From Candidatus Limnocylindrales bacterium (GTDB lineage: Bacteria > Moduliflexota > Moduliflexia > Moduliflexales > JAUQPW01), in assembly GCA_035559535.1 (NCBI GenBank), contig DATMBG010000017.1:62001-126000 (forward strand): 64,000 nt of DNA. Direction: 5' to 3'. Every line of letters starts with the position of its first letter. Position 1 is the stretch's first letter. The position numbers and the translations under genes were made by a program. Shown one piece after another: positions 1 through 23,878 of this stretch. The notes beneath the pieces were generated by a model. That model had not been told where the DNA came from. It was given only the letters and a program-made list of their open reading frames with translations, and did not search any database.

Positions 1-504
<504 letters not shown>

Positions 505-649
505 GGGATGGAGGATGCTTCTGCAGAGACAGGCGTTCCAACCACTTTCCAACAAAGGGAGAAATATAAAGAGCTTTATCGTCCTGGGATGTTACGGTTT
601 ATTTTCTTAGAAGAACATCCGTTATTTACTCAGGTGGATAGAATTTATC

Positions 650-1213
650 ATGAAACGTTGTCCATGGGCTAAAACAGAATGGTATATAGCTTATCATGAT
701 AAAGAGTGGGGTGTACCGGTGCATGATGACAGGATCTTATTTGAGTTTCTAATTTTAGAAGGTATGCAGGCTGGATTGAGTTGGGAAACTATCTTAAAAA
801 AACGTGATACCTATGGTATGGCTTTTGACCGTTTCGATCCACGTATCATAGCCGGGTACGATATCCATAAAGTCAACGAACTTCTTGCCAATCCGGGTAT
901 TGTTCGTAATCGGCTCAAGATCATGGCTGCCATTCAAAATGCTAAAGCATTCCTTGCCGTGCAGAGGGAGTTTAACAGCTTTGACGCCTATATTTGGCGA
1001 TTTGTAAACGGAAAGCCCAAACAGAATAGCTGGAAAACGCTCCAGGAGATTCCGGCCCGAACACCCGAATCTGAGGCATTAAGCAAAGATTTAATACGTC
1101 GTGGCTTCAAATTTGTCGGTTCAACCATCTGCTACGCTTTTATGCAAGCTGTGGGAATGGTCAATGATCACCTGGTAGATTGCTTTCGGTATACGGAAAT
1201 AGCGAGACTTTAA
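650..1213 (+). CDS. tag: DNA-3-methyladenine glycosylase I
   Basis: RCPW, YHDKEWG, LEGMQAGLSW, GFKFVG and VNDH..C motifs. Confidence 0.95.
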   Translation: MKRCPWAKTEWYIAYHDKEWGVPVHDDRILFEFLILEGMQAGLSWETILKKRDTYGMAFDRFDPRIIAGYDIHKVNELLANPGIVRNRLKIMAAIQNAKAFLAVQREFNSFDAYIWRFVNGKPKQNSWKTLQEIPARTPESEALSKDLIRRGFKFVGSTICYAFMQAVGMVNDHLVDCFRYTEIARL

Positions 1214-1315
1214 ATCCGGACAAATCTCAAATCGAGAAGACAGATACAGATTAACCTATATGATTTTTAAAATTCCTTTTAATTCCCTTTTAGTTATGGG
1301 ATCAGGAGGAGGCCT

Positions 1316-2143
1316 ATGATACTTGTAGATACCCATGCCCATATCTATTCTGAAGATACGACGCAGTATCCTCAAATTCCAGAACCCTATTTACCACCCC
1401 CCGGTCGAGGAACCCTTGAAGATTTAAGGAACGAGATGCGTACGAGTGGGGTGGATCGGGTGGTGGTTGTGCAAACCTTCACCGCTTATGGCCATGACAA
1501 TCGTTTGATTCTTGACACTGTACGGGATAACCGGTCCTGGATGACAGGGGTTGTGAACGTTGATCCCTTCGATGTTCACTCCCTGGATATTTTGGAACAG
1601 GCCCTTTCTGTGGGAGTACGGGGTAATAGGGTATCCCAGGGATGGCCCACAGACGGTTCGGTACTTGCCGGGCATCGCCGATTATGGGAAGCGGCCAGGC
1701 GATTGAAGATGGTGGTGTGTGCTTTACTTAATCCACCGAATCTTCGATCTCTGGCCAGTCTACTCAATGAATTCCCGGATGTACCGGTTGTGCTGGATCA
1801 TTGTGCAAACCTGAAAGCTTCTGACCACCCGCAGTCGGAATATCTACAAAAGGTTCTGGATTTAGCCCGATTCGAAAATTTGTATGCGAAGTTATCATTT
1901 GTCGTTATGGGATCGGAACAAGAGTTTCCTTGCCGGGATATGTTCGAGATGACACGACAGATCATCGATGCCTATACGCCGGAGCGGTGTATGTGGGGGA
2001 GTGATTTTCCAACTTCACTCTGGATTCCTAAGGTTACTTATCAACAGCACCTTGAAATCTTTCAAATTCATTTGGGATTATCTGAATCAGAAAAAGCTGC
2101 CATTTTGGGAGAGACGGCTTTGAAATTATGGTTTAAGGATTGA
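1316..2143 (+). CDS. Amidohydrolase_2 family protein (lactonase-like)
   Basis: DTHAH, VVLDHCA and WGSDFP motifs; AGGAGG RBS. Confidence 0.85.
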   Translation: MILVDTHAHIYSEDTTQYPQIPEPYLPPPGRGTLEDLRNEMRTSGVDRVVVVQTFTAYGHDNRLILDTVRDNRSWMTGVVNVDPFDVHSLDILEQALSVGVRGNRVSQGWPTDGSVLAGHRRLWEAARRLKMVVCALLNPPNLRSLASLLNEFPDVPVVLDHCANLKASDHPQSEYLQKVLDLARFENLYAKLSFVVMGSEQEFPCRDMFEMTRQIIDAYTPERCMWGSDFPTSLWIPKVTYQQHLEIFQIHLGLSESEKAAILGETALKLWFKD

Positions 2144-2451
2144 TTTTTGCCTTGAAAATCTTCTCTCGGTCTTTGTAAATCAAACTTTGCTTTATCTGGC
2201 ATAGAAAAAAGCTTAAGCTATCGCCCCTGCCGGATAGAAATTATCTATTGGCCCCTGTTGAGATCCTTCTATTAATTTAGATTAAACAGGAACCCTCAGA
2301 GAAATCATTATTAAATCCTTTAAGATTTTCCGTTTGTCCTTTCCACGGATCATTTTGCCTTTGAGGGAAAGGATCTCTCCTAAAGGGTTGATAACCTGGG
2401 GAGAATGGGAAAAGGCACAGGGTATCCTTTCCCTTACAAGCCTTGGATTTT

Positions 2452-3609
2452 ATGTATGCCTTAAATGAGCATCAAACGCGAATTGTAGAAAAAGCTAAAA
2501 AGCTTGGGCAAGAGGTGTTAGACAAATATGCCCGGGAAGTAGATGAAAAAGGGCGTTTTCCCAAAGAAAGTATTAAAGCCTTACAGGAAGCAGGTTTCAT
2601 GGGACTTATTGTACCGACTTCTTATGGGGGGTGGGGAGAAGGTCCAAAAACCTTTGCGGCGGTGGTAGATATTCTGGCTCAATATTGTGGTTCCACCGCC
2701 ATGGTTTATCTTATGCACATTTGTGGTACGGCGGCCATTCAAGCTTATCCACCTGTCCAGGGAGATCAAATTTTAAGGGACATTGTGGCCGGTCGCCATT
2801 TGACGACCCTGGCCTTTAGCGAAAAAGGGTCTCGGAGTCATTTCTGGGTCCCGGTCAGTCAGGCCCGTCAGAATGGGTCGACTCATATTGTTAGTTGTGA
2901 GAAGTCCTGGGTAACCAGTGCTTCCCAAGCCGATAGTTATATCCTATCTACCAAAGCTCCCGACGCTAAAGGGCCCATGGAATGGAATATGTACTTTGTA
3001 CCTACGACCACTCCCGGCATTAAGGTAGAAGGTCCCTGGGATGGGTTGGGATTGAGGGGTAATGATAGCGCACCGGTGACCCTTCAAAACACTTCTATTC
3101 CGGTCGATCAAAGGGTTTGTGAACCGGGTACGGGTTTTAATGCTGCTTTTCAACATGTACTTCCCTGGTTCCAGATTGGAAATGCAGCCATTTCGGTAGG
3201 CCTTGCAGAAGCAGCCCTTCAATCCAGTATCCAGCACGCAATACAAACTCGATTTCAACACCTGGAAACCAACCTGGCCAGCCTTCCCAACATACGAGCC
3301 AATCTGGCTAAAATGCGAATGGAAGTGGATGCCTGTCGGGCTCTTGTAGATAAGGTGGCGGAGAAAATGGAAAAACCGGATGCAACAACCCTTCTGGGAG
3401 TTTTGGAATGTAAGGCGGCCTGTAATGAAATGGCCTTACGGGTCACCGAATTGGCCATGCGGACCTGTGGGGGTGCGGCCTTCAGCAAGCATCTCACAGT
3501 AGAGAGAAATTTTCGGGATAGTCGGGCCGGAGCCGTCATGGCGCCTACCTCCGATATTCTTTATGATTTTATAGGAAAAGCCCTGGTTGGTATGGATCTA
3601 TTTGCATAG
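2452..3609 (+). CDS. Acyl-CoA dehydrogenase superfamily flavoprotein, non-canonical
   Basis: VDEKGRFP, LAFSE, KSWVTS, WDGLGLRGNDS, CGGAAF and ERNFRDSR motifs; ATG 2452 preferred to TTG 2443. Confidence 0.88.
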   Translation: MYALNEHQTRIVEKAKKLGQEVLDKYAREVDEKGRFPKESIKALQEAGFMGLIVPTSYGGWGEGPKTFAAVVDILAQYCGSTAMVYLMHICGTAAIQAYPPVQGDQILRDIVAGRHLTTLAFSEKGSRSHFWVPVSQARQNGSTHIVSCEKSWVTSASQADSYILSTKAPDAKGPMEWNMYFVPTTTPGIKVEGPWDGLGLRGNDSAPVTLQNTSIPVDQRVCEPGTGFNAAFQHVLPWFQIGNAAISVGLAEAALQSSIQHAIQTRFQHLETNLASLPNIRANLAKMRMEVDACRALVDKVAEKMEKPDATTLLGVLECKAACNEMALRVTELAMRTCGGAAFSKHLTVERNFRDSRAGAVMAPTSDILYDFIGKALVGMDLFA

Positions 3610-3647
3610 GCTGAGGTTGGAGATTTAGAGATCGAAGAAGTCTCTCA

Positions 3648-4499
3648 ATGCTCAAGCCTCCAGCTTCTCTTCCCTTTATGAGTCGTCAGAAATCTATTAT
3701 AGTAGGCGCAGTGGCCTACGACCCCAAAGTTGTAACCATCTGGGAGATTATAAAAAAATACTTCGGAGACTCCGGAGTTCCCCTAGACTATGTTTTGTAC
3801 AGTAACTATGAGAGTCTGGTGGAAGCCCTCGTCCAGCGACATATCCATATTGCCTGGAATTCTCCCTTAGCCTGGGTTCGAACCCAAATGTTAACCAAAG
3901 GTGCCTGTAAAGCCCTGGCCATGAGGGATACGGATCAAAACTTAACCTCCAAAATTTATACACGGATAGATACAGGTATTCAGACCCTGGCAGATCTAAA
4001 AGGTAAAACCCTGGCCCTTGGAGCCATAGATTCCCCTCAGGCTTCTATCCTTCCCCTCCATTATCTCAGCAAGCAGGGCATAGATATTCAAAAGGATATT
4101 AAGATCCTCCGCTTTAACTGGATGGTCGGTAAACATGGAGACCATATCGGAGGTGAAGAGGAAGCTCTGAAGGCCGTACAACGGGGAGAAGCCGATGCAG
4201 GGGCCATGCTCGATCTTAACTGGATTCGATTTGCCAATGAGGGAAAGTTGGATACCACCCGGCTTAAGATCCTTGCCTCTACAGAGCCCTTTGATCATTG
4301 CAATTTCACCGCTTTAGAAGACTTTGATCCAGAACTCGAAAAACAATGGACAGAGACCCTTTTCAAAATGGATTATAACAACCCGGAACATCGATACATG
4401 ATGGATCTGGAAGGTCTTAAAGAATGGAGACCTGCCCGAACTCACCTTTACAAAAATCTGACCGAAGCAGTTCGGGAACAGAAACTTTATGAAGATTAA
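3648..4499 (+). CDS. PhnD/phosphonate-type substrate-binding-fold protein with no signal peptide
   Basis: YESLVEAL..IHIAW, GIQTLADLKGKTLALGAIDS and ALKAVQRGEADAGA motifs; start may be ATG 3678. Confidence 0.8.
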   Translation: MLKPPASLPFMSRQKSIIVGAVAYDPKVVTIWEIIKKYFGDSGVPLDYVLYSNYESLVEALVQRHIHIAWNSPLAWVRTQMLTKGACKALAMRDTDQNLTSKIYTRIDTGIQTLADLKGKTLALGAIDSPQASILPLHYLSKQGIDIQKDIKILRFNWMVGKHGDHIGGEEEALKAVQRGEADAGAMLDLNWIRFANEGKLDTTRLKILASTEPFDHCNFTALEDFDPELEKQWTETLFKMDYNNPEHRYMMDLEGLKEWRPARTHLYKNLTEAVREQKLYED

Positions 4500-4524
4500 C
4501 GCTTAATCCATAAAAAAAGGAGGA

Positions 4525-5667
4525 ATGAAAAGAATGAAACAATTAACTGGACTGTTTATTTATTATTTATCTGTAATTATGGTACCCCTCGTTTCCTTCC
4601 TGGTAATAACCGGTTCAAAAGCAGAGGCGAGTAACTCCACATCTGATTTAAAGCCTAAGCAGGCCTCCTTTGCCATCAAAAATGAATTTGTAATTCAGGT
4701 TCCCCCAGAAGCAAAGGTTGTGCGGGCCTGGTTTACCGTTCCTCAGGAGGATGCCTACTCAGAAATCAAAGATTTCCTTGTAGAATCGGATTATCCCGTT
4801 CAATATCATAAGGATTCCCAGGGTAACAAAGTAGGTTATTTAGAGGTTCAAGCCCCTCAGCAGAAGGAAATTGTTATTCGGGAGCGGTTTAGCTTAACCC
4901 GTACCGAAATTAGGAACAATCTTCAACCCACCGCTACCCGTCCGCTCAACGAGAAAGAGCATGTAGAACTGGCCGAATACCTTAAACCCGCTACCCATAT
5001 TATTATTAATGATCAAATAAAAGCACTTGCCAGGCAAATCGCAGGAGATGAAGAAAATCCTGTTATCATAGCCCGCAAGCTCTATGACTGGACCATCGAG
5101 AATATCGACTATTGGGTCAAAGACCCTGATAACCTTAAGGCTTCTGCCTTTGGTGATACCGAGTATTGTCTGACGACCAAAACCGGAAATTGCACGGATT
5201 TTCACTCGCTATATGCCTCCCTGGGACGATCCCTGGGTATTCCCGTCCAGTTGGTTTACGGTTCTTTACTTAAGCCCACCCTTAACGGGGTTGAAGTCGA
5301 TGGAAGCTATCACTGTTGGGTTGAATTTTACGCACCTAATTTGGGTTGGATTCCCCTCGATGCTGCTATTGCCGATATTTATGCCGGGGATATCAAACTC
5401 ACAGAAAAAAATGCGAAATTGGTGGAATTGACTACGGCTATCGGCTACCATGGCCCAGACCCCAACATAGTGAATTATTATTTTGGAAACCTGGACGAAC
5501 GGCGTGTGGTATGGTCCAAGGGTCGTGATCTTATTATGTCTCCGCCACAGGACGGTGGTCCGGTCAATGCCCTCTCTAAAATTTATGTGGAAGTGGATGG
5601 TAAAGAATACAAAGATTGGACTCGCCTTTTTACTTATCAGGAATTAAATAAAAATAGTCAAAATTAA
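4525..5667 (+). CDS. Secreted transglutaminase-like domain protein
   Basis: Hydrophobic N-terminus ending AEA; Cys-His-Asp triad in GNCTDFH, YHCWVEF and GWIPLD. Confidence 0.85.
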   Translation: MKRMKQLTGLFIYYLSVIMVPLVSFLVITGSKAEASNSTSDLKPKQASFAIKNEFVIQVPPEAKVVRAWFTVPQEDAYSEIKDFLVESDYPVQYHKDSQGNKVGYLEVQAPQQKEIVIRERFSLTRTEIRNNLQPTATRPLNEKEHVELAEYLKPATHIIINDQIKALARQIAGDEENPVIIARKLYDWTIENIDYWVKDPDNLKASAFGDTEYCLTTKTGNCTDFHSLYASLGRSLGIPVQLVYGSLLKPTLNGVEVDGSYHCWVEFYAPNLGWIPLDAAIADIYAGDIKLTEKNAKLVELTTAIGYHGPDPNIVNYYFGNLDERRVVWSKGRDLIMSPPQDGGPVNALSKIYVEVDGKEYKDWTRLFTYQELNKNSQN

Positions 5668-5802
5668 GGAGTCTTCCATCTTGACCTTTAACCCATCCAG
5701 ACTTAAGATTCTTTATCCTGGAAGCAGGTTTGGAACCTGCCCCCGGTTTATAAAACGCAAAGGAATATCATATCCTTTCCCCCCCCCCTCCCTCTCCCCT
5801 CA

Positions 5803-5871
5803 CCCCCAGTTCCCCCTCTCCGTAGGGGCGGGAGGCCTCCCGCCCCTACACAGGAGAGGGGGAACTGGGGG
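5803..5871. repeat. Nested palindrome: 19-bp perfect inverted repeat enclosing a GTAG-type REP-like hairpin
   Basis: cccccagttccccctctcc (5803-5821) / ggagagggggaactggggg (5853-5871) around gtaggggcgggaggcctcccgcccctac (5822-5849). Confidence 0.85.
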
Positions 5872-5916
5872 GGCCGGGGGGATGGAGGTGAGGGGGTATC
5901 AGCAAAGGAGGTAACA

Positions 5917-6417
5917 ATGGCTTCAGTTACTTTTAAAGGCAATCCGGTTACACTGGTTGGCAATGAAGTAAAAGTCGGTCAAACGGCTCCGGATTTTAAA
6001 GTCCAGAAAGCAGATCTGAGTGATTATACATTGAATAGCTCTTCCGGTAAAACCCGGATCATCGCATCGGTTCCCTCATTGGACACACCGGTCTGTGATA
6101 TGGAAACTAAGCGGTTCAATGAAGAAGCGGCCAAAATACCTAATGTAGAAATCGTATGTGTGAGTATGGATTTGCCCTTCGCTCAAAAACGCTGGTGTGG
6201 TGCAACGAATGTCGATAAAGTTATTACCGTCAGTGATCATCGGGAAGCCTCCTTTGGTAAGAATTATGGGGTCTTAATCAGTGGAGGGCCACTGGATCGT
6301 TTGCTGGCACGGGCTGTTTTTGTAATCGGCCCCGATAACAAGGTTAAGTATGTGGAGTACGTAAAGGATATCACCGAACAGCCTAATTATGAAGCAGTTC
6401 TGGCAGCAGCCAGGTAA
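5917..6417 (+). CDS. tpx: Thiol peroxidase (atypical 2-Cys peroxiredoxin)
   Basis: VTFKGNPV, SVPSLDTPVC and SMDLPFAQKRWC motifs; AGGAGG RBS. Confidence 0.95.
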   Translation: MASVTFKGNPVTLVGNEVKVGQTAPDFKVQKADLSDYTLNSSSGKTRIIASVPSLDTPVCDMETKRFNEEAAKIPNVEIVCVSMDLPFAQKRWCGATNVDKVITVSDHREASFGKNYGVLISGGPLDRLLARAVFVIGPDNKVKYVEYVKDITEQPNYEAVLAAAR

Positions 6418-6721
6418 TCTCCCTGCTAAATTCAGTTCACACCCACATCTTCCCTTAATACCGTATAGGTATATACAGAAAATACCTGTTCTCTAGAAGC
6501 AAAGTGCAAGAAGCTTCTAGAGAACATATCGATGGTAACTAAAATTCTTGATTCCTCTGGAAGGATGGTTCTTGAATCCTTTAATCCGACCCCTGCCAGG
6601 ATTATCGGTTGGGATAAAACGGTCCATCTTTCTGGAATTGTTAGATTTGTATAGAATTCCCTATTGTTTTCTTGGAGGTTTGCATTTATTTTGAACTATT
6701 CCCCTTTAAGGAAGGTCAGGC

Positions 6722-8002
6722 ATGATGAATTCAAAGGTAAAAGAATCCAGGATTCCGGATATAATTTGTGAAGCCGGAGGTTTGGATATGGAAAGTGGGC
6801 TTTCGGTTTTGCTGAGGCGGTATTTAGATGCCATGAATCCCGGAGAGATTTTGGTTATACGGTCCCAGAATCCGATGGTGGAGCACGAAATAGGTCCCTG
6901 GTGTCGCTGGACGGGGCACAGTCTGTGTGAAAGCCAGAAAATTGGATCGTATAACGAGTATTGGATTCAAAGAGGAACGGCCACCACCTTAAACGTAACC
7001 GAAAAGCCTGACTGGGATCTTCATCCGAGGCGACAGAAAAATGGAAGTATCTCCATGGAAGACTGGGGAGTGGGTCGATTGGCCTTTGTACCCGAAGAAG
7101 CCCCCCAAACCGTTGGATTTGCTCCACGAGGAGCCGTTCGAGAGGAAGGTTTTCCAGGATATGGGTTTCGGATCAACAGAAAGGAAGAGGTCTGGAGTGA
7201 AGAGATTGCTGCGTTATACGAGCATGCAGCTCAAAATCAATGGAGTGCCGTAAAGGATATTCCCTGGGGAGATCTCAAACCGCTTCCAGAACTTTTAGAG
7301 CGGGCTGTCTGTCAGTTGATGACCTTTCTGGTCGAAAATGAGTATTCGGCCCTCTACGTTCCCGGCAAGTTTATATCCCGGATTAATCCCCAATTCACCG
7401 AGGTGGTATTATTCTTAGGCACCCAACTGGCTGATGAAGCCCGTCATATTGAGGTTTTTACTAAACGTGCTCTGGCTAATGGAGGGGGATTACAATATTC
7501 GGCGACTTCTACTCAAATGTCTCTCAAAACCCTCTATGATCAGGAGGATTTCACCACGGCTTCTTTTCTTTTAAGCGTATTAGGAGAAGGTACCTTTTTA
7601 GATCTTCTCTGGTTTATTGAGACCTATGCACCTGACCCGGTGACAGCCGAGATCCTGAGACGAGCCCGCCAGGATGAAAGCCGTCATGTCCGTTTTGGAA
7701 TCACCCACCTGAAATTTTATCTCCAGCGAGATGCCACCCATTCTCAAAAGCTCTTACAAGCAGTGCAGGATCGGGCCGATTATATGAGATCCGTATCCGG
7801 TGTTAATCCCCTCGTACAGGATGCGTTGGTATTCCTGGCCGGAGGTGGAGAGAGTCCTGAGCAAATTCGAGCAGGTATGAAATATGTCCACCGGCTTTAT
7901 CAACGTATGCACAAAAACCGAATCCACAGACTTCAATCTATCGGATTACCCCTTGATCAGGCTGAGAAGATATCTTTGCTTCATACTCCCAACTTTATGT
8001 AA
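6722..8002 (+). CDS. TusA-like domain fused to a ferritin-like diiron protein
   Basis: N-terminal LDAMNPGEILVIRSQNP..IGPWCRWTGH (TusA/SirA-like); C-terminal ENEYSA, DEARH, EGTF and DESRH carboxylate/His motifs. Confidence 0.75.
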   Translation: MMNSKVKESRIPDIICEAGGLDMESGLSVLLRRYLDAMNPGEILVIRSQNPMVEHEIGPWCRWTGHSLCESQKIGSYNEYWIQRGTATTLNVTEKPDWDLHPRRQKNGSISMEDWGVGRLAFVPEEAPQTVGFAPRGAVREEGFPGYGFRINRKEEVWSEEIAALYEHAAQNQWSAVKDIPWGDLKPLPELLERAVCQLMTFLVENEYSALYVPGKFISRINPQFTEVVLFLGTQLADEARHIEVFTKRALANGGGLQYSATSTQMSLKTLYDQEDFTTASFLLSVLGEGTFLDLLWFIETYAPDPVTAEILRRARQDESRHVRFGITHLKFYLQRDATHSQKLLQAVQDRADYMRSVSGVNPLVQDALVFLAGGGESPEQIRAGMKYVHRLYQRMHKNRIHRLQSIGLPLDQAEKISLLHTPNFM

Positions 8003-8016
8003 TGAAAGAATTTGGA

Positions 8017-8130
8017 CCCTCACCCCTAACCCCTCTCCCAAGGCTTTGGGAGAGGGGGGACCAAGAGAAGAAATTTTAACATCTTATTCTCTCCTCTCCC
8101 ACGCCATGGAAGAGGGACTGGGAGTGAGGA
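8017..8130. repeat. CCCTCACCCC...GGGAGTGAGG dispersed palindromic repeat
   Basis: ccctcacccctaacccctctcccaaggctttgggagagggg; a related copy spans 18966-19524. Confidence 0.7.
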
Positions 8131-8142
8131 CAAGCAATTACC

Positions 8143-9036
8143 ATGAAAAAGTCCCTGCCTATCCGGCTGGTGGATCTCGCTTTGTTATTGGTAGTAGCCA
8201 TCTGGTCTAATAGTTTTATCGTGGTCAAGATGGTTCTCCCTCAGTTTGATCCTTTCGCTTTCCTCTTTGCCCGAATCCTTCTTAACACCCTGCTGGGGAT
8301 AATAATTCTATGGATGAAGGAGCGGAATTTTCATACCTACCCAAAAGATCTTCCCTATTTTATAATTTCCGGGCTTTTTGGATTTACCTTTTATCAACTG
8401 GGTTATATTTTAGGATTAAGTCGAACAACCGCCTTTTCCTCGGCCGTACTCAATTGTACCATGCCCCTTTTCTCCCTGTTGATTTTGACCCTCTTTCGGC
8501 TGGAGCGAATCAATTTTTACCAATGGACGGGTACTTTATTAGGTTTTATCGGGGTCATATGGTTTGTCTCCGAGAAAATGGAAGGAGTTCGGTTGACAAC
8601 GGCGGGATGGGGCGATCTCCTGACCATCGGAGCTGCATTTTCTTTCTCCATCTATAGTATTTTGAACAAATCCTTGATTACCCGATATTCTTCAACTAAA
8701 ATTATGACTTATACCTTATTCTTCGGAACCGGATTTTTAGCTCCTATCTGTTTGATTCCTACCCTGAAGCAAAACTGGTTGGGAGTCTCCTTGTATGGAT
8801 GGATAGGTTTGATCTATTCGGCGATATTCCCTTCTTATGTGGCCTATTCCATCTGGAATTGGGCTATTGCCCGTCAGGGAGTCGCCCGAACTTCCCTCTT
8901 TACCTTCCTCGTTCCACCTCTCAGTGGGATACTTTCTGCCTGGTTTTTGGATGAAACCTTTAGTACAGCTAAGCTGGCCGGATTTGGACTGATCCTGGGA
9001 GGTTTAATCTTAACCCGTATTTCTTGGGACAAATAA
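8143..9036 (+). CDS. DMT/EamA family transporter
   Basis: About 10 hydrophobic helices in two EamA-like halves; GDLLTIGAA motif. Confidence 0.9.
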   Translation: MKKSLPIRLVDLALLLVVAIWSNSFIVVKMVLPQFDPFAFLFARILLNTLLGIIILWMKERNFHTYPKDLPYFIISGLFGFTFYQLGYILGLSRTTAFSSAVLNCTMPLFSLLILTLFRLERINFYQWTGTLLGFIGVIWFVSEKMEGVRLTTAGWGDLLTIGAAFSFSIYSILNKSLITRYSSTKIMTYTLFFGTGFLAPICLIPTLKQNWLGVSLYGWIGLIYSAIFPSYVAYSIWNWAIARQGVARTSLFTFLVPPLSGILSAWFLDETFSTAKLAGFGLILGGLILTRISWDK

Positions 9037-9291
9037 AGGGGTGAGAAGTGGTTTAAAAGCTACGCAAAGCTAAGTAAACAAAGTACCGGGAAGCCAAAAT
9101 CAGAGTCCATAAGAAATTAACCCCCTCGGAATAGGATTATTCCGATGGAGAAGATGTTTCAGCTTTGCTTTAACTTTGGACTCCAGACTCCTGAGTCCCT
9201 ACCAAACTCTTCTGATCCTTTAAATTGCCATACAAACAATCTGAAAATAAAGCGATACTGGAGTTTCCTATGAATTTTTCTCCTTACCTGT

Positions 9292-9317
9292 AAATCCAAC
9301 CGATTCTTTTATTCGTA
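9292..9317 (+). promoter_or_regulatory. Candidate SigK-type ECF promoter (ATCC-N16-CGTA)
   Basis: ATCC at 9294-9297 and CGTA at 9314-9317, upstream of the DUF4331 gene; the cluster encodes a SigK-like sigma. Confidence 0.5.
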
Positions 9318-9486
9318 TTTCCTTTAGAACCATACCAGATTCGTTTTGAAAGGAGTCATCAATGGAAGGATATGTTCTCGCATACCCTTACAAGGAGGTC
9401 GAATTTCAATATGAAAGGGATGGTATGAGAAAGCATTATAATTGAACATTGATGGGTTTCCCTAAAGTTAACCAGGAGGATTCTAT

Positions 9487-11325
9487 ATGAAAGTAACTCG
9501 AAGAACATCTAAATTTTTTGCAGTATTTTTAATAATCTTACTTCTTATTCCCGGTGGAACGAGTCCTAAAGCCGCCAGCCATCGAGAAGCCCCTCTGATT
9601 GCAGAGGATCCTACGGCCGATAATACCGATACCTATGCCTTTGTAAGTCCAGAAGATCCTACTAAGCTGGTCATTCTTGCCAACTACATTCCCTTTGAAG
9701 CTCCGGCAGGAGGACCTAATTTTTATAACTTCTCGGATCAGGTAACTTACGATATACACATCGTAAACGATTTCAGTGATGGGGATGCTACCGAAGACCT
9801 TACCTTTCGGTTTAATTTTCAGACTGTTATCTCAAATCCGTTCACCTTTCTCTACAACTTCGGTCCGTTGACAGGGCTTAATCCTAACTCCAATCAGAAT
9901 ATTTATCAGACCTATACCATAACCGGCATTGCCGGACCAACGAATAAACCCAAAGCCCAGGTCTTATTAACTCCTTTTCCATTGACCGTTCCCCCTAATT
10001 ATGTGGGTAGCAACTCTGTACCGGATCCTGACACCACCAACTTTTTCGGGATCGGATCCATACCTTTGCCTACTCAGATTGGCGGGGGAACCATGCGTGT
10101 TTTTGCCGGTCAACGCGAAGAAGGATTCTATGCCGACCTGGGGGCCATTTTCGATCTCCTGCAACTCAGGACCGTGACCGGAGCTAATGGAGGCAGAGGA
10201 GTGGATGCTCTGGCAGGTCTCAATGTCCATACGATTGCCCTGGAGCTTCCTATTACGGCGGTGACTAAGAATCATCAGTTAATTACCGATCCCAATGATC
10301 CCAACGCCATTATCGGCGTTTATGCCTCTGCCAGTCGAAAGGTGGGTAACCAGCTTCAACAAGTTTCCCGTCTGGCAAATCCCCTGGTCAATGAAGTCAT
10401 TATTCCGGCATCCCTCAAGGATCAATGGAATACCAGTAATCCTAACAATGAGAGCCAGTTCCTTTTCTTCTATCAATTTCCTGAAGTGGCTACGCTGTTA
10501 AGCCAGTTGTTTGGTGTGAATGTACCTTCGGCACCCCGGAATGATATTGTGCAGGCCCTCTTAACCGGAGTACCCGGGTTGAACTGCCCGAATGCCTCAC
10601 CCACCTGTAGTGGTACACCCATTGCCGATTTGTTAAGATTGAATGTAGCCATACCCCCTAAAAAACCCGGGGATGCCGGATTCAGCAGATTGGGAGTGAT
10701 CGATGGAGATATCTCTGGGTTTCCCAACGGACGCCGTGTTTACGATGATGTGGTAGATATTGCCCTCCGGGTCATGGCCGGTGTCCTGGTTCCGGGTTTC
10801 AACATAGCGCCGAATAACGCTCTGAGCGATGGAGTAGACGGTAATGATAAGGTTTTCCTGAACGGCTTTCCCTTCCTACCAACACCTTATAATGGTTATA
10901 TCCAATCTGCAGGAATCCGATCGGTCTCCGAAACGGTACCTGAATTTCGCTATCTGGTCGTGCTAAACGGTGCCAACGAAGTGCCCCCGGTCTCCACAAC
11001 CGCCAGCGGTGCAGCCACGTTTAGTCAGAAGGATAATACCGTTAATTTTAAGGTTGTCCTCTCTAACATTTCAGGTGTAACGGCGGCTCATATTCACTCC
11101 GGTGCGGTAGGGGTCAATGGACCTATTCGGGTAAATTTATATACGGGACCGACCACGGGAGCCATCAACGGTACTCTGGTTGAAGGTACCTTCACCCCGG
11201 CAGATGTGAATGGAATCAGCTATAGTGATCTGATCAACGAGATGAAAAATGGAACGGCTTATGTAAATATTCACACCACGACCAATCCTAATGGCGAACT
11301 CCGGGGTCAGGTTCAACTACAATAA
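9487..11325 (+). CDS. Secreted DUF4331-family protein with a C-terminal CHRD domain
   Basis: Signal peptide then ASHREAP, DNTDTYAF, QVSRLANPLVNE and GFPNGRR..DDVVDI; CHRD motifs LNGANEVPP, AHIH and YVNIHT..PNGELRGQ. Confidence 0.85.
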   Translation: MKVTRRTSKFFAVFLIILLLIPGGTSPKAASHREAPLIAEDPTADNTDTYAFVSPEDPTKLVILANYIPFEAPAGGPNFYNFSDQVTYDIHIVNDFSDGDATEDLTFRFNFQTVISNPFTFLYNFGPLTGLNPNSNQNIYQTYTITGIAGPTNKPKAQVLLTPFPLTVPPNYVGSNSVPDPDTTNFFGIGSIPLPTQIGGGTMRVFAGQREEGFYADLGAIFDLLQLRTVTGANGGRGVDALAGLNVHTIALELPITAVTKNHQLITDPNDPNAIIGVYASASRKVGNQLQQVSRLANPLVNEVIIPASLKDQWNTSNPNNESQFLFFYQFPEVATLLSQLFGVNVPSAPRNDIVQALLTGVPGLNCPNASPTCSGTPIADLLRLNVAIPPKKPGDAGFSRLGVIDGDISGFPNGRRVYDDVVDIALRVMAGVLVPGFNIAPNNALSDGVDGNDKVFLNGFPFLPTPYNGYIQSAGIRSVSETVPEFRYLVVLNGANEVPPVSTTASGAATFSQKDNTVNFKVVLSNISGVTAAHIHSGAVGVNGPIRVNLYTGPTTGAINGTLVEGTFTPADVNGISYSDLINEMKNGTAYVNIHTTTNPNGELRGQVQLQ

Positions 11326-11327
11326 TT

Positions 11328-11364
11328 CGAGGGTAGGGCGGAGTACCTCTCCGCCCTACCCTCG
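11328..11364. repeat. 16-bp perfect hairpin (GTAG REP-like; possible mRNA stabiliser)
   Basis: cgagggtagggcggag-tacct-ctccgccctaccctcg just after the stop codon. Confidence 0.8.
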
Positions 11365-11426
11365 GTTTAACCGTCATCGGTTTCAAGAAACGTCCTAGAC
11401 CATCTTCCAAACTGGCGAAATTATTT

Positions 11427-12710
11427 ATGATATCTCGAAAGAGCGTTTCAATCTTTATTCTGATTCATTTCTTACTCTTAACCGGTAGAGTAGCCCGGGT
11501 GGAATCTGAAGATGCCCTGAAGGGAAAGTCCAGGATAGATATCCAGATTCAGCTTTATCAGGAAAAAATTTCTCAAGACCCCCAACAGATCCATAACTAC
11601 TATGCATTGGCGACCAATTACATACGAAAGGCGCGTGAAACGGGGGATATTACCTACTATCTTCTGGCAGAAACAACCCTTCAAAGGGCCCTGGAAATTA
11701 AGAAAGAGGACTACGAAGCCCTCAAATACCTGGCAACGGTTTACCTGTCAAAACACCAATTCCAGGAAGCCCTGACTTTGGCCAGGAAGCTCAACGAAAT
11801 GCACCCTGAGGATTATCTCAACTACGGAACCCTGGGGGATGCCCTGGTAGAGTTGGGGGAATATGATAAAGCCGACGAGGTAATTCAAAAGATGCTAAAA
11901 CTCAAACCCGGGTTGGTTTCTTATAGTCGGGCTTCTTATCTACGTGAACTGCGAGGGGATATAGAAGGGGCCATCCAATGGATGGAGCTGGCCGTTCGTA
12001 CGGCAAATCCCAGGGAAACGGAAGCCGTTGCCTGGTGTTTAACCCAACTGGGGAATTTACACTTTAATAAAGGTGATCTTGCCAAAGCCGAGACGCAATA
12101 TATAAAAGCCCTGACTATATTTCCAAGATACCATTATGCCCTGGCCGGAAGAGGAGGTGTTGAAGCAGCTAAAAAAAATTATCCACAGGCCGTTGATTGG
12201 TATAAGCAGGCAATCCAGATCATTCCCCTCCCCGAGTTCATTACAGCCCTGGGAGATGTCTATCAAAAAATGGGAGATCCCCACGAAGCTAGAAAACAAT
12301 ACGATCTGGTGGAGTATATGGGGCTATTAAATAAAATCAACCAGGTGGTATACAATCGAGACCTGGCCCTCTTTTATGCCGACCATGACCTTAAACTCAC
12401 GGAGGCCTTAGAGCTTGCCCGAAAGGAGCTGGAGTTTCGGAAAGATAACATTTATACCCAGGATACCCTGGCCTGGGCCTGTTATAAGAACCAGCAGTTC
12501 CAGGAAGCCCTTAAAGCTTCAGCACTATCTCTTCGGCTGGGAACCCAAGATGCGCGCCTTTTTTTCCATGCCGGAATGATCTACTATAAACTGGGTGAAA
12601 AAGATAAAGCAGCGGAGTACCTGAACAAGGCCCTTACTTTAAATCCTTATTTTCACATTCTGTATGCAGAGGTGGCCGAGAAAACACTGGCAGAGATAAA
12701 GGGCCGTTGA
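11427..12710 (+). CDS. Secreted tetratricopeptide repeat protein
   Basis: Signal-like N-terminus; repeated TPR patterns (LGDALVELGEYDKA, LGNLHFNKGDLAKA). Confidence 0.88.
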   Translation: MISRKSVSIFILIHFLLLTGRVARVESEDALKGKSRIDIQIQLYQEKISQDPQQIHNYYALATNYIRKARETGDITYYLLAETTLQRALEIKKEDYEALKYLATVYLSKHQFQEALTLARKLNEMHPEDYLNYGTLGDALVELGEYDKADEVIQKMLKLKPGLVSYSRASYLRELRGDIEGAIQWMELAVRTANPRETEAVAWCLTQLGNLHFNKGDLAKAETQYIKALTIFPRYHYALAGRGGVEAAKKNYPQAVDWYKQAIQIIPLPEFITALGDVYQKMGDPHEARKQYDLVEYMGLLNKINQVVYNRDLALFYADHDLKLTEALELARKELEFRKDNIYTQDTLAWACYKNQQFQEALKASALSLRLGTQDARLFFHAGMIYYKLGEKDKAAEYLNKALTLNPYFHILYAEVAEKTLAEIKGR

Positions 12711-12758
12711 GGAAGAAACAAAAACCAAGATAATTCTTACCCTGGGAGGAAAAAATAC

Positions 12759-14513: not shown

Positions 14514-14590
14514 ATTCCATCTTGTCGTAAATTCAATTTAACTTCTAACCTGGCAAATCCCGGTCATCCTAGATATTCCTGCTTTTCTTA

Positions 14591-14619
14591 TTGACTCCTG
14601 ACTCAAATTATGGCATATT
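14591..14619 (+). promoter_or_regulatory. Sigma-70-like promoter for the ECF sigma gene
   Basis: TTGACT-N17-CATATT; overlaps the ORF-track ATG at 14610, favouring ATG 14703. Confidence 0.5.
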
Positions 14620-14702
14620 GGTTATCAATTGGGGAAATACTTCAAACGGATAAACCCGGCTCTTTTGGATCGGATCGAGAGCTAATCTTTCTAAGTTTTG
14701 TC

Positions 14703-15269
14703 ATGGAGCAAAATTTAAGTCTCTACCTTCTTAAGAGGATAGCCGAAAAAGATCTAAACGCTTTCAGTATATTTTATGATTCCTATGCAGCCGTTATTTA
14801 TAGCTTAGCTCTTCGTATCGTTCGTAACTCTCAAGAAGCCGAGGATATCGTTCAGCAAGTATTTCTTCAAGTATGGCATAAAGCTTCTCAATATGATGCC
14901 CAACAAGGAAGTCCTCAAGCCTGGCTTATGACCATAGCTCGTAATCAGGCCATTGATAAATTCCGTCTCATGAGATCAAAGCGAGAGGTTAACTGGGAGG
15001 AGATGGAAAAGCCTGTTTCTGAGAATCCCCAATCAGCCGGTGAGCCTTTATACTCTTTGTTAGACAAGGAAAAGAGAGATCTGATATTAGAGGCCCTTCA
15101 GACTCTTTCTCCATCCCAAAGGAGTGCCATCGAGCTTGCTTACTTTGAAGGATTAAGTCACAGGGAGATTTCCGAGAAACTTAAAGAACCCTTAGGTACT
15201 ATAAAAACACGTATCAATCTCGGGTTGAAAAAACTCAGAGACATGCTACGACCTCATTTTCGTGAATGA
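14703..15269 (+). CDS. ECF RNA polymerase sigma factor, SigK-like
   Basis: AEDIVQQVFLQVW, WLMTIARNQAID and LAYFEGLSHREIS..PLGTIKTR motifs. Confidence 0.9.
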   Translation: MEQNLSLYLLKRIAEKDLNAFSIFYDSYAAVIYSLALRIVRNSQEAEDIVQQVFLQVWHKASQYDAQQGSPQAWLMTIARNQAIDKFRLMRSKREVNWEEMEKPVSENPQSAGEPLYSLLDKEKRDLILEALQTLSPSQRSAIELAYFEGLSHREISEKLKEPLGTIKTRINLGLKKLRDMLRPHFRE

Positions 15270-22548: not shown

Positions 22549-22576
22549 GATTTAAATCTCCTCCTGGCGATAGTTT

Positions 22577-23737: not shown

Positions 23738-23793
23738 AATACCAGAGAATAAAAGAATAAAGGAGGAAGGATTAATTTGAGAGGGATCTATCC

Positions 23794-23877
23794 TTCCCCT
23801 CTATTCCCCTACTCCCATACTTCCCCCTCCCCACACTTCCCTACTTTCATACCTCCATACTCCCACACTTTCCATCC
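23794..23877. repeat. Degenerate 8-bp tandem repeat (CTCCCATA/CTCCCACA)
   Basis: actcccatac..ctcccacact..ctccatactcccacact; same unit at 30918-30985. Confidence 0.7.
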
Positions 23878-23878
23878 T

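Follow-up and report, generated by a model that had tools for sequence, protein, structure and literature searches.

Genes at the locus

The window, as the whole stretch of 64,000 nucleotides analysed is called here, carries five open reading frames that all lie on the plus strand, as an earlier note on this DNA had claimed. They encode an ACAD-fold flavoprotein of the Rv1679/FadE16 family (2452(2443)-3609), a PhnD-fold protein of the Rv1680 SBP-like family (3648-4499), a transglutaminase-like protein (4525-5667), the thiol peroxidase Tpx (5917-6417) and a two-domain protein in which a degenerate TusA-like domain is joined by a conserved linker to a ferritin-like diiron domain (6722-8002). The intergenic gaps measure 38, 25, 249 and 304 nt in this order, and promoter-like sites within them are no commoner than in shuffled sequence.

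The flavoprotein matches all three Pfam ACAD domains and, best by far, the NCBIfam family NF049984 with 481 bits, yet stays below the strict cut-off of 600. Where solved short-chain ACADs have Y-E-G the alignment places M-A-P (nt 3538-3546), which is kept in 48 of 49 family members, bearing out the lack of a C-terminal YEG remarked on in the earlier note. At the position of the isovaleryl-CoA-dehydrogenase-type base neither E nor D occurs in any of the 49 family members. Judged by its sequence, the protein is without the catalytic glutamate or any other canonical catalytic base; the window's ordinary ACAD (23879-25117) has the YEG. Among dehydrogenases AcrC scores 164 bits and solved SCAD 129, and among ACAD-fold monooxygenases SfnB scores 114, HsaA 83 and DszC 67. 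This ranking puts the window ACAD nearer to true acyl-CoA dehydrogenases than to ACAD-fold monooxygenases and counts against a monooxygenase-like role.

The second gene product matches NF049985 with 280 bits (cut-off 400) as well as PF12974 (Phosphonate-bd), and its true start is likely the ATG at 3678. No signal peptide and no hydrophobic N-terminal stretch were found: within the first 50 residues no 15-residue stretch exceeds a hydropathy of 1.50, a value reached on the first beta strand, as compared to 2.53 for the transglutaminase, and in the family consensus that strand is preceded by only about 8 residues. ABC permease or ATPase genes are absent from positions 1-16000 of the window. The protein is thus, as far as can be predicted from its N-terminus, cytoplasmic, and the earlier description of a binding-protein fold without export signal or ABC partners holds. 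Across 34 relatives 33 columns are invariant, and the signature includes G161-K-H-G-D165 (nt 4128-4142) and H217-C218 (nt 4296-4301). The invariant residues of the cleft are mostly charged or polar (D25, D47, R93, D96, D128, K162, H163, D165, E170, H217, C218, E255).

The transglutaminase (PF01841 Transglut_core, 79.7 bits) begins with a hydrophobic signal or anchor helix, overlooked in the earlier note, and is therefore taken to be extracytoplasmic. Tpx (NF001808, 229.9 bits, cut-off 123; cysteines at positions 60, 81 and 94) stands isolated between the 249-nt gap upstream and the 304-nt gap downstream.

In the last gene product the TusA-like domain (approximately residues 12-85, nt 6755-6976) scores 28.2 bits against the TusA family, whose gathering score is 28.6, and the ferritin-like four-helix-bundle domain (nt 7181-8002) gives weak DUF455, AurF and R2lox matches. 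The structure model (pLDDT 80.8, pTM 0.84) finds VlmB, R2lox, aldehyde-deformylating oxygenase and TusA in Foldseek searches, with a TMt of 0.84 for the TusA-like domain on the E. coli TusA chain 3lvj_C. The proposed fusion of a TusA-like with a diiron ferritin-like domain is thereby confirmed, including six ligands in the pattern E207 (7340-7342), E239 (7436-7438) xx H242 (7445-7447), E289 (7586-7588), E319 (7676-7678) xx H322 (7685-7687). This E-E-H-E-E-H set is intact in all 80 loci of the census described below. Within an alignment of 26 relatives of 48-84% identity the C-terminal LHTPNFM is nearly invariant, H421, T422, N424, F425 and M426 being invariant and P423 kept in at least 90%. 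The position of the persulfide cysteine is occupied by M23 (nt 6788-6790).

Recurrence of a three-gene cassette

A scan of GTDB species genomes yielded at least 570 TusA-diiron relatives among the 600 pattern matches listed, and the best 80 of their loci were taken for a census that was seeded from the diiron gene only. Beside the TusA-diiron relative the odd ACAD is found in 62 of these 80 loci and a PhnD-like protein lacking a signal in 63, with little space between the genes and all of them on one strand; ACAD and binding-protein genes adjoin in 58 of the 80, the loci holding both. The order is ACAD, binding protein, diiron protein in 41 loci and diiron protein, ACAD, binding protein in 15; 2 loci have other orders, and in 5, of which 3 lie at a contig end, the binding protein is the only partner. 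Neither partner occurs in the remaining 17, made up of 4 cut by a contig end, 5 with a cysteine-bearing paralogue and 8 with a TusA-less form from Dehalococcoidia. The genes of the trio abut or overlap, as in L003 (7958-9127, 9124-9969, 9977-11242), and gene order tracks the protein tree, where the form with the ACAD first and the diiron gene last constitutes a clade of 51 rows (SH-aLRT 98). In these best 80 loci the trio spreads over about 10 phyla, including Planctomycetota, Acidobacteriota, Armatimonadota, Actinomycetota, Chloroflexota, Bacillota, Campylobacterota and Bdellovibrionota.

Every other neighbour family occurs in at most 14 of the 80 loci, and those that could be named are generic. 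The trio has no flavin reductase, ETF or ferredoxin as companion among these neighbours, nor a CoA ligase, thioesterase or carrier protein. The commonest other neighbour, in 14 loci, looks like a spurious antisense reading frame overlapping the diiron gene. Transglutaminase homologues were found near the trio in 2 of the 80 loci, on the opposite strand and kilobases away, and Tpx and EamA in 1 each, both in L001 from a genome 95% identical to the window. The real unit is therefore a cassette of three genes encoding the ACAD-fold flavoprotein, the cytoplasmic PhnD-fold protein and the TusA-like/diiron protein, into which the exported transglutaminase and the housekeeping Tpx have been inserted in the window's lineage. 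Of the dedicated, uncharacterised redox module of five genes that the earlier note had postulated, the three genes that travel together across phyla remain; the five-gene extent does not, since transglutaminase and Tpx drop out as members, and neither does the role of possible exporter given to the EamA gene at 8143. Because two genes and spacers of about 0.55 kb interrupt the window's own trio, its co-transcription is doubtful.

Predicted docking and counterparts in other lineages

Complex modelling suggests that the binding protein docks on the TusA-diiron protein. The predicted pair reaches an ipSAE of 0.74, as compared to 0.00 for the best of three controls, and different runs have at least 96% of contacts in common with partner pLDDT of at least 89. 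In calibration 58 of 80 solved complexes reached this mark, as did 2 of 110 mismatched pairs, counts that hold only roughly here because the model was built with our own unpaired alignments. The predicted interface on the TusA-diiron protein comprises residues 22-25, 28, 52, 55-65, 87, 91 and 142-143 and takes in residue 23, the former cysteine position. Cysteine occurs there in 1 of 63 loci linked to ACAD or binding protein (L004) as compared to 5 of 5 unlinked full-length loci, and of the 61 linked loci where a residue is aligned, 60 have a hydrophobic or small one, 2 further linked loci having a gap. The face of the TusA-like domain around the lost cysteine is thus the predicted dock for the binding protein. 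An intracellular carrier, as proposed earlier for the PhnD-like protein, would be compatible with these data, although the model presents it as a docked subunit more than as a free carrier.

On replicons of mycobacterial type a radical SAM enzyme takes the diiron protein's place as third partner. ACAD and binding protein adjoin in 3 of 3 plasmid matches, and in Mycolicibacterium an Rv1678-like gene, the ACAD (631 bits), the SBP-like protein (495 bits) and an Rv1681-family radical SAM enzyme (536 bits) follow in a row; Miltoncostaea has ACAD, SBP, DUF2515 and a radical SAM/SPASM gene. No Rv1681-like gene adjoins the trio in any of the 80 diiron loci. Fusions of the binding domain with a radical SAM domain occur in eight proteins, and in P0130, the only fusion compared, the radical SAM part is 45% identical to an Rv1681-like protein. 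Moreover, the diatom protein P0148 has 71 relatives, and 69 of them carry an FMO together with PF12974, with diatoms, dinoflagellates, Hemiselmis and Sphaeroforma as named sources. The FMO-fused binding domains retain the signature residues, which are common to the radical-SAM-linked, radical-SAM-fused and FMO-fused forms, and about 31-33 of them are kept wherever the domain occurs. In the apparent fusions P0052, P0141 and P0143 the junctions are junk or truncated, which makes merged gene calls the probable explanation.

Possible mechanism and known systems

How could these three proteins act together? On balance, the cassette probably constitutes a cytosolic three-protein system for the O2-dependent oxidation of a small molecule, with a radical SAM alternative in some lineages. 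The PhnD-fold protein would close around a small, polar metabolite bound in the cleft, as its roughly 33 invariant residues suggest; in E. coli PhnD the stretches aligning with Y54, D128/S129, H163 and H217/C218 presumably hold ligand-contacting residues. Its C-lobe may dock on the TusA-like domain, which has lost its sulfur-carrying cysteine and according to the model would now serve as an adaptor. The diiron centre could then activate O2 and oxidise the bound substrate, a step to which the six intact ligands and the likeness to VlmB, R2lox and aldehyde-deformylating oxygenase point. For the ACAD-fold flavoprotein a flavin-dependent oxidation or oxygenation rather than acyl-CoA alpha,beta-dehydrogenation is proposed, because it has no catalytic base and because the eukaryotic stand-in is a fused class-B flavin monooxygenase. 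In Mycobacteriales and some Chloroflexota the Rv1681-family radical SAM enzyme would stand in for the diiron protein and plausibly carry out its step without O2; this equivalence is suggested by position, mutual exclusion and fusions, and the two enzymes could do different chemistry. As to the substrate, our best guess is a small molecule that is charged and has an S or N atom open to oxidation.

A pathway of all five genes, in which ACAD, carrier, transglutaminase, Tpx and TusA-diiron protein act on one sulfur-containing molecule that EamA exports, would fit the close, co-oriented arrangement in the window, in particular the 38- and 25-nt gaps between ACAD, binding-protein and transglutaminase genes. 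Thiol-redox genes do appear now and then near relatives: OsmC directly after the TusA-less diiron gene in 7 loci, a thioredoxin-like gene upstream in L080, a disulfide-reductase-like gene in L042, and CMD/AhpD-like, glutaredoxin and disulfide oxidoreductase genes near the Mycolicibacterium cassette; L037 has an EamA gene about 0.9 kb downstream. Given the rarity of transglutaminase, Tpx and EamA in the census, the export signal or anchor of the transglutaminase among otherwise cytoplasmic proteins and the wide gaps flanking Tpx, such a pathway is very unlikely. Just as poor are the prospects of a sulfur relay, in which the TusA domain would deliver a persulfide to the diiron site or collect one from it, in the way TusA serves IscS or DsrEFH. 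The domain has a genuine TusA fold and the paralogous clade keeps the cysteine, one member (L009) being preceded at about 0.8 kb by a co-oriented DsrE-like gene; however, the window has M23, all but one of the 63 linked loci are without the cysteine, the 5 cysteine-bearing loci have long flanks with neither ACAD nor binding protein, and in the model the cysteine face would be buried against the binding protein. The earlier idea of a TusA domain carrying sulfur thus finds no footing in the cassette.

Alternatively, the ACAD could act on an acyl-CoA, with a hydrophobic ligand held by the PhnD fold and a diiron enzyme working like a desaturase, aldehyde-deformylating oxygenase or R2lox. Genuine short-chain ACADs are the nearest matches of the ACAD, aldehyde-deformylating oxygenase (TMt 0.74) and the fatty-acid-binding R2lox are among the folds nearest to the diiron domain, and BstB, a PF12974 member, binds sterols (PMC10942540), all of which counts for this lipid or acyl-thioester chemistry. 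We nevertheless regard it as unlikely, as the ACAD has neither canonical catalytic base, the invariant cleft residues are mostly charged or polar, the trio has no CoA ligase, thioesterase or carrier protein as companion, and eukaryotes pair the binding domain with an FMO, an enzyme that oxygenates heteroatoms. It could also be imagined that the PhnD-fold protein holds no substrate and is instead a metal (iron) site or chaperone, or that its own residues (H217-C218, K162-H163, an invariant Trp and Tyr) are modified by flavoprotein and iron enzyme into a protein-derived cofactor. Such a role would suit an invariant set rich in Asp, Glu, His, Cys and Tyr, and whichever third partner occurs, diiron protein or radical SAM, it is an iron enzyme; in NCBIfam the Rv1681-type enzyme has its closest relatives among radical SAM maturases that modify peptides or proteins, and maturation of quinohemoprotein amine dehydrogenase likewise uses a radical SAM enzyme and a flavin monooxygenase. 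Permanent fusion of a whole FMO or radical SAM domain to a one-time substrate would be odd, though, the predicted dock is stable and stoichiometric, and the polypeptide of FMO-fused forms includes no iron partner, so that this role seems a little more doubtful still.

The three-protein oxidation system favoured here shares parts with several known systems. VlmB azoxy synthase (8wvr, 6d9f), AurF-type N-oxygenases, R2-like ligand-binding oxidase and cyanobacterial aldehyde-deformylating oxygenase have the same four-helix bundle with E/ExxH/E/ExxH ligands, and such ferritin-like diiron enzymes are the best Foldseek and phmmer matches of the diiron domain. However, identity is only 15-21%, Pfam AurF and DUF455 scores fall far below gathering, and the TusA-like domain, the conserved 70-residue linker and the LHTPNFM end are not known from those enzymes. 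E. coli TusA, solved with IscS (3lvj), has the same fold as the TusA-like domain (28% identity), and presumably the same face around the cysteine loop binds the partner in that structure; the catalytic cysteine is replaced here, and the modelled partner is the PhnD-fold protein rather than a cysteine desulfurase. The bilobed fold is that of the periplasmic PF12974 proteins PhnD, PtxB, HtxB, AioX and BstB, the family profile matching solved PhnD and PtxB with E-values of 4e-31 to 5e-18 and Y54, S129 and H163 aligning with conserved residues. Unlike these, the window protein is predicted to be cytoplasmic, has no ABC partners and belongs to a family paired with or fused to oxidising enzymes; its Ser/Thr-rich anion loop has become D-S-x-Q-A, and K-H-G-D and H-C motifs have been added. 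With DszC, SfnB, HsaA, nitrososynthases and 3-sulfinopropanoyl-CoA desulfinase the ACAD shares the missing base and significant NCBIfam or PDB matches, but it scores no higher against them (67-141 bits) than against true dehydrogenases, and no flavin reductase lies nearby. Bacterial multicomponent diiron monooxygenases combine a diiron oxygenase, a flavoprotein and a small auxiliary protein, as the trio may do; the trio differs in having no Rieske protein or ferredoxin, an ACAD fold in place of a ferredoxin-NAD reductase and a binding-protein fold as auxiliary.

The closest relative is the cassette that NCBIfam already curates as the Rv1678-Rv1681 families, consisting of a membrane protein (NF049986), a FadE16-type ACAD (NF049984), the SBP-like protein (NF049985) and a radical SAM enzyme (NF049973). 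The earlier statement that no pathway of such composition is known therefore stands as regards function, as the literature search found no published function or assigned pathway for the trio and no published function for the mycobacterial cassette, but not as regards the composition itself. Rv1680 is listed as a putative phosphonate transporter component in a structure-based annotation (PMC8562490). The window differs in its third gene, which encodes the TusA-diiron protein instead of a radical SAM enzyme, in its scores below cut-off (481/600 and 280/400) and in that no Rv1678-like membrane gene adjoins its trio. Its ACAD and binding protein nevertheless fall under the Rv1679 and Rv1680 families, whose models score best for them, sharing with above-cut-off members the VMAPT motif, 31-32 of the 33 signature residues and the order of ACAD followed by SBP.

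Gene content of the window and the census of diiron loci

ORF calling recovered five co-oriented open reading frames on the + strand of the window at the positions proposed in the earlier note, and the three oddities described there, an ACAD without the YEG motif, a binding protein without a signal and a fusion of TusA with a ferritin-like domain, were all borne out. The ACAD (2452-3609) matches all three Pfam ACAD domains weakly (75, 60 and 45 bits), the SBP-like binding protein (3648-4499) carries a PF12974 domain and matches the Rv1680 family (NF049985), and the TusA-diiron protein (6722-8002) comes close to the threshold for TusA and matches DUF455, AurF and R2lox weakly. In the window two genes and long spacers split this trio. 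The intervening genes encode a transglutaminase-core protein (4525-5667; PF01841, 79.7 bits against a gathering score of 23) and the thiol peroxidase Tpx (5917-6417; NF001808, 229.9 bits against a cut-off of 123); an EamA transporter is encoded at 8143-9036. The transglutaminase has a signal or anchor helix, which had been overlooked, and therefore acts outside the cytoplasm; a core containing Cys, His and Asp is visible in its sequence, providing putative catalytic residues. Tpx has cysteines at positions 60 and 94, which we take to be the peroxidatic and the resolving cysteine.

Which of these genes travel together? The diiron gene was the sole starting point of the census, with an alignment of 26 TusA-diiron relatives (48-84% identity) as query, drawn from 2532 matches among 8000 candidates scored. 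The genome scan gave 570 relatives among the 600 pattern matches listed, and the best 80 loci were kept. Comparison of the window proteins by blastp with all ORFs of these best 80 loci found the ACAD in 62 and the binding protein in 63, whereas the transglutaminase was found in two (L062 and L069, on the opposite strand and about 0.5 and 1.8 kb from the trio) and Tpx and EamA in one each, both in locus L001, 95% identical to the window. The contig of L001 ends 812 nt upstream, within the Tpx gene, and fits the window arrangement. The observation from which a five-gene oxidative module with a possible EamA exporter had been proposed is confirmed, but its interpretation is supported in part only, the module being reduced to a three-gene cassette of ACAD, binding protein and diiron protein.

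With ACAD matches of at least 150 bits taken, the order in the best 80 loci is ACAD-SBP-diiron in 41, diiron-ACAD-SBP in 15 and another in 2, and the trio genes abut or overlap. Five loci carry the binding protein without the ACAD (three of them at a contig end) and 17 carry neither gene, four of which, L001 among them, are cut by the contig end, five hold a Cys-bearing paralogue and eight a TusA-less form from Dehalococcoidia. Carriers belong to Planctomycetota, Acidobacteriota, Armatimonadota, Actinomycetota, Chloroflexota, Bacillota, Campylobacterota, Bdellovibrionota, a Sericytochromatia bin and others. Culturable non-pathogens that carry the trio include Paenibacillus chartarius (L034), Effusibacillus consociatus (L037) and Ammoniphilus sp. 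(L027). A quick tree was built from the ferritin-like domain by maximum likelihood; in it the ACAD-SBP-diiron form falls into a single group (51 rows, SH-aLRT 98), the diiron-ACAD-SBP loci lie together on the other side and the Cys-bearing and TusA-less forms are placed near the base; since the tree is midpoint-rooted only, no direction of change is claimed.

When 1340 neighbour ORFs were clustered, 14 of the 80 loci was the most that any further family reached, and this family overlaps the diiron gene in antisense and looks like a spurious ORF. The next annotated families are generic (ABC ATPase 11, histidine kinase 9, Ser/Thr kinase 8, LysR 6, SDR 5). No reductase or ETF travelling with the trio was found by this clustering, and Pfam scans of 8 trio and 8 non-trio loci gave no common theme among immediate neighbours. 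A RiPP precursor was also considered and rejected: small ORFs situated up to 900 nt from the trio (1182 from 63 loci) yield no family shared by more than four loci, and those reaching four come from closely related Blastocatellia genomes and are out-of-frame-looking peptides.

The Cys-keeping TusA-diiron paralogues form a clade (L005, L006, L008, L009, L011) that is found without ACAD and binding protein. L009 contains a DsrE-like sulfur-relay gene (8167-8589) about 0.8 kb upstream of the paralogue on the same strand, and one Armatimonadota bin has both kinds of locus, L002 being linked and L008 unlinked. The TusA-less loci of Dehalococcoidia (L055, 10070-12881; also L047, L051, L057 and others) likewise have no ACAD or binding protein nearby; the gene directly after the diiron gene encodes an OsmC-like peroxidase, and L051, L055 and L057, the loci inspected for it, have a MetE-like (Meth_synt_2) gene just downstream.

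The remainder of the window is ordinary chromosome and includes a standard beta-oxidation operon (20149-25117, - strand) for a 3-hydroxyacyl-CoA dehydrogenase/enoyl-CoA hydratase fusion, a thiolase and a canonical ACAD (23879-25117), which has strong Pfam scores and an intact YEG and offers an internal contrast to the odd ACAD. A + strand run at 9487-16156 (DUF4331-CHRD protein, TPR protein, long NicO-like nickel/cobalt transporter homologue, ECF sigma/RskA-type anti-sigma pair) gives the impression of an envelope cluster connected with metals. On a Miltoncostaea plasmid, too, a DUF4331 gene is present (L081, 14510 onward), 6.6 kb downstream of an ACAD/binding-protein pair; found near the pair on this one plasmid and in the window, yet in just one of the 80 diiron loci, this association was treated as coincidence. 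Rfam searches at gathering thresholds of the window and seven Bacillota trio loci detected no riboswitch or other RNA.

The ACAD-fold flavoprotein and the cytoplasmic binding protein

The ACAD gene lies directly upstream of the Rv1680-type gene with a gap of 38 nt, and its product scores 481.3 bits (E 2e-144) with the Rv1679 family model NF049984, under the curated cut-off of 600 that Mycobacteriales members exceed (631 and 641 bits), the next family reaching 164 bits. The motifs VMAPT and LAFSE-GSR are common to the window protein and Rv1679 members above the cut-off. In phmmer alignments to solved short-chain ACADs M-A-P occupies the Y-E-G position, and MAP is kept in 48 of 49 ACAD relatives. 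The alternative base position in helix G, as in isovaleryl-CoA dehydrogenase, reads W-F-Q in the window and is E or D in none of the 49 relatives. As judged from these alignments the protein lacks a canonical catalytic base and so would not be expected to follow the canonical acyl-CoA dehydrogenase mechanism. Its sequence is somewhat nearer to true dehydrogenases than to ACAD-fold monooxygenases.

The binding protein scores 279.8 bits (E 3e-83) with NF049985, the Rv1680 family, under the cut-off of 400 and with the next family at 101 bits. An alignment of 34 relatives has 33 invariant columns, including Y24, W32, D47, S52, Y54, W70, N71, R93, D96, D128, S129, the stretch G-K-H-G-D (161-165), E170, H217, C218, F220, E255, W260 and Y268. 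Of this signature, 32 residues are shared with the plasmid protein of L082 (495 bits) and 31 with that of L083 (473 bits), both above the NF049985 cut-off. A profile search among 1.84 billion cluster representatives gave 354 representatives of the family at E <= 1e-30.

Could the binding protein simply serve an ABC transporter for phosphonate or phosphite, like PhnD or PtxB? Solved PhnD and PtxB proteins come up in a search with the family profile (E 4e-31 to 5e-18), and in these alignments Y54, D128/S129, H163 and H217/C218 lie on stretches that in E. coli PhnD include residues in contact with the ligand. The scores for the ABC phosphonate and phosphite binding models are below their cut-offs (TIGR01098, 85 against 112 bits; TIGR03431, 60 against 261 bits), inspection of the sequence revealed no hydrophobic N-terminal segment and no signal peptide, and ORF calls with Pfam scans found no ABC permease or ATPase gene in the first 16 kb of the window, so that this assignment was rejected. 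In the family consensus just about 8 residues precede the first strand, and the true start is probably the ATG at 3678.

The TusA-diiron protein and its predicted docking

The model of the TusA-diiron protein (pLDDT 80.8, pTM 0.84) contains an N-terminal domain sharing its fold with E. coli TusA (3lvj_C, TMt 0.84 in Foldseek), which scores 28.2 bits with Pfam PF01206, just under the gathering score of 28.6. For the C-terminal domain the resemblance is to the azoxy synthase VlmB, to R2-like ligand-binding oxidase and to aldehyde-deformylating oxygenase of cyanobacteria, with an identity of 15-21%. Six putative metal ligands, E207, E239, H242, E289, E319 and H322 (E, ExxH, E, ExxH), are present in all 80 loci, and fold matches together with this ligand motif identify a ferritin-like four-helix bundle with a predicted diiron centre. 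Membership in the AurF, VlmB, R2lox or DUF455 families was rejected on HMM scores, which stay below gathering (AurF, 16.3 against 29.6; DUF455, 20.1 against 34.3; R2lox NF006200, 32 against 194).

What is the function of the TusA-like domain? The earlier note had considered a sulfur carrier, a role contradicted by the residue at the persulfide-cysteine position, which is M23 in the window and Cys in just one of the 63 linked loci; the others have L, A, I, V, F, P, S or G (60 loci), D (one) or a gap (two). In the unlinked full-length loci the cysteine is kept in 5 of 5. A modelled complex of the diiron protein with the binding protein has an ipSAE of 0.74, compared to 0.00 for the best of three controls. 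Among 80 solved complexes 58 attain the mark of the modelled complex, and among 110 mismatched pairs 2 do so, counts that are rough since own alignments were supplied. The runs agree in at least 96% of contacts and partner pLDDT is at least 89. In the model the TusA-like domain contributes residues 22-25, 28, 52, 55-65, 87, 91 and 142-143, taking in position 23 and the W-C-R turn, and the binding protein its C-lobe residues 94-102, 189-211 and 243-258. A solved complex of TusA with a binding protein is not known, so that a high score owed to a memorised structure seems unlikely. According to this model the TusA domain looks like a docking adaptor and not a sulfur carrier.

The linker of the same protein (residues 86-160) has highly conserved elements (P96-D-W, D114-W and G132-F-x-P-R-G-A) and despite this conservation is modelled poorly, at a pLDDT of 50-70. 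Perhaps it requires a partner in order to fold, for which the ACAD would be a candidate.

The mycobacterial-type cassette, binding-domain fusions and a proposed working

A tblastn search of plasmids with the binding protein gave three good matches, and in all three an ACAD gene lies directly upstream. In Mycolicibacterium vanbaalenii the row consists of an Rv1678-family membrane protein, an Rv1679 ACAD (631 bits), an Rv1680 SBP-like protein (495 bits) and an Rv1681 radical SAM protein (536 bits), and in Miltoncostaea oceani of ACAD, SBP, DUF2515 and a radical SAM/SPASM protein. The latter locus (L081, 4622-9889) also has a DUF2064-NUDIX gene immediately upstream of the ACAD, the DUF2515 gene being situated between SBP and radical SAM/SPASM. 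Plasmid members have VMAPT and 31-32 of the 33 signature residues in common with the window proteins, and because of these shared motifs the window ACAD and SBP are placed in the Rv1679 and Rv1680 families broadly, below the strict cut-offs. The claim that no characterised pathway has this composition holds insofar as no function was found in print; the ACAD/SBP pair itself, however, is already catalogued in NCBIfam as Rv1679/Rv1680. A full-text search for a function of Rv1679, Rv1680, Rv1681, MoeX or fadE16 yielded only proteomic, biomarker, transcriptomic and annotation mentions, and the entry in one structure-based annotation names Rv1680 a putative phosphonate transporter component (PMC8562490).

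The two cassette types appear to exclude each other. An Rv1681-like gene adjoins the trio in none of the 80 diiron loci, the single match being weak and about 4 kb downstream on the other strand (L064), and tblastn found no diiron protein in the plasmid collection. Two Acidobacteriota loci contain an Rv1678-like membrane-protein gene about 5 kb downstream of the trio (L064, 14667-16419, with a weak radical-SAM-like gene beside it, and L060, 16357-17022; - strand). Such genes might be left over from a cassette of the other type or be companions that derive from it.

The binding domain also occurs in longer proteins, 46 of which were matched and their partners assigned by precomputed Pfam domains. 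A radical SAM domain is present in 8 (Chloroflexota; 556-583 aa), ACAD domains in 13, an FMO domain in 4 and TusA, MetE-like and DUF2064 domains in one each, P0121 being a MetE-like piece and P0135 a DUF2064 domain fused to the binding domain. On rescanning, the radical SAM fusion P0130 has a complete binding domain, and its radical SAM part is 45% identical to an Rv1681-like protein. In the aligned fused forms the signature is retained across partners (P0130 33/33, diatom protein P0148 31/33, P0121 31/33). Are such fusions products of gene calling? At the junctions some of the ACAD and TusA fusions are truncated or look like junk, and these were counted as adjacency evidence only; so were P0052, P0141 and P0143, candidates for SBP/TusA-diiron or triple fusions, which were rejected as fusions for truncated or arginine/glycine-rich, junk-like junctions and probably reflect frameshifts or the merging of gene calls in genomes of high GC content. 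The FMO/binding-domain fusions, however, look real and common: 69 of 71 relatives of P0148 contain both domains, with sources including Nitzschia, Seminavis, Cyclotella, Skeletonema, Symbiodinium, Durusdinium, Hemiselmis and Sphaeroforma, and 9 of 22 long representatives scanned from the profile search are FMO fusions as well (P0192-P0278).

The flavin monooxygenase in these common fusions is of class B, and their hosts are diatoms, dinoflagellates, a cryptophyte and an ichthyosporean. In two fusions aligned over the full length 31 of the 33 signature residues are present, two others being incomplete at the N-terminal end of the domain; a literature search found no function in print. Four proteins of about 510-580 residues (P0171, P0177, P0188, P0198) have two tandem PhnD-type domains with a strong match to the Rv1680-type profile. 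The ESM Atlas offered only the cluster names 'hypothetical', 'ferritin-like' and 'phosphonate ABC transporter'.

How might the three proteins work together? The binding protein would close on a small polar substrate and dock, as modelled, via the TusA-like adaptor, the diiron centre would oxidise the bound substrate with O2 and the ACAD-fold flavoprotein would carry out a flavin-dependent oxidation or oxygenation. In eukaryotes an FMO, oxygenating soft N and S nucleophiles, would stand in for the ACAD, and the Rv1681 radical SAM enzyme could be the O2-independent alternative to the diiron protein, as suggested by position and mutual exclusion alone. Thiol-redox genes are found nearby, namely Tpx in the window, OsmC after the TusA-less form, a DsrE-like gene at one Cys-bearing paralogue, and AhpD-like, glutaredoxin and disulfide oxidoreductase genes near the mycobacterial-type cassette. 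These neighbours, the MetE-like fusion and the FMO partner are weak, circumstantial hints that the substrate might contain sulfur or nitrogen. Several points speak against the proposed working: the ACAD sequence leans somewhat to true dehydrogenases, neither a reductase nor ETF accompanies the trio, the trio is split in the window, the census had a single starting gene, and the diiron and radical SAM partners are equated by position and mutual exclusion.

It is conceivable, though rather doubtful, that the Rv1680-type cytoplasmic binding fold is the fixed core of an unrecognised class of enzyme systems with interchangeable oxidants and a Cys-less TusA as docking adaptor. One invariant ligand or catalytic pocket would then be preserved from mycobacteria to diatoms and dinoflagellates, served on one side by an ACAD-fold or class-B flavin monooxygenase and on the other by an O2-dependent diiron or an O2-independent radical SAM enzyme, and all these systems would act on one widespread metabolite. 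Three ideas can be tested: that a sulfur-carrier fold was recycled as a protein-docking adaptor, that a transporter-type binding protein is a subunit of a cytosolic oxidase, and that diiron and radical SAM enzymes alternate on the same two-protein core, where one might serve aerobic and the other anaerobic conditions.

At least eight named phyla have the trio, a compact and self-contained set of genes for which no reported function was found. Its relatives include three Mycobacterium tuberculosis genes, fadE16/Rv1679, Rv1680 and Rv1681 'MoeX', whose annotations as fatty-acid, transport and molybdopterin genes are probably wrong, and marine algae of ecological importance likewise have the binding domain, fused to a flavin monooxygenase. 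Once identified, the ligand bound by this protein would probably assign the trio and its mycobacterial and algal relatives together. The window cassette is best described as a diiron variant of a mycobacterial-type cassette that is catalogued but functionally uncharacterised; at its centre is a domain of binding-protein fold, found as far afield as microbial eukaryotes.
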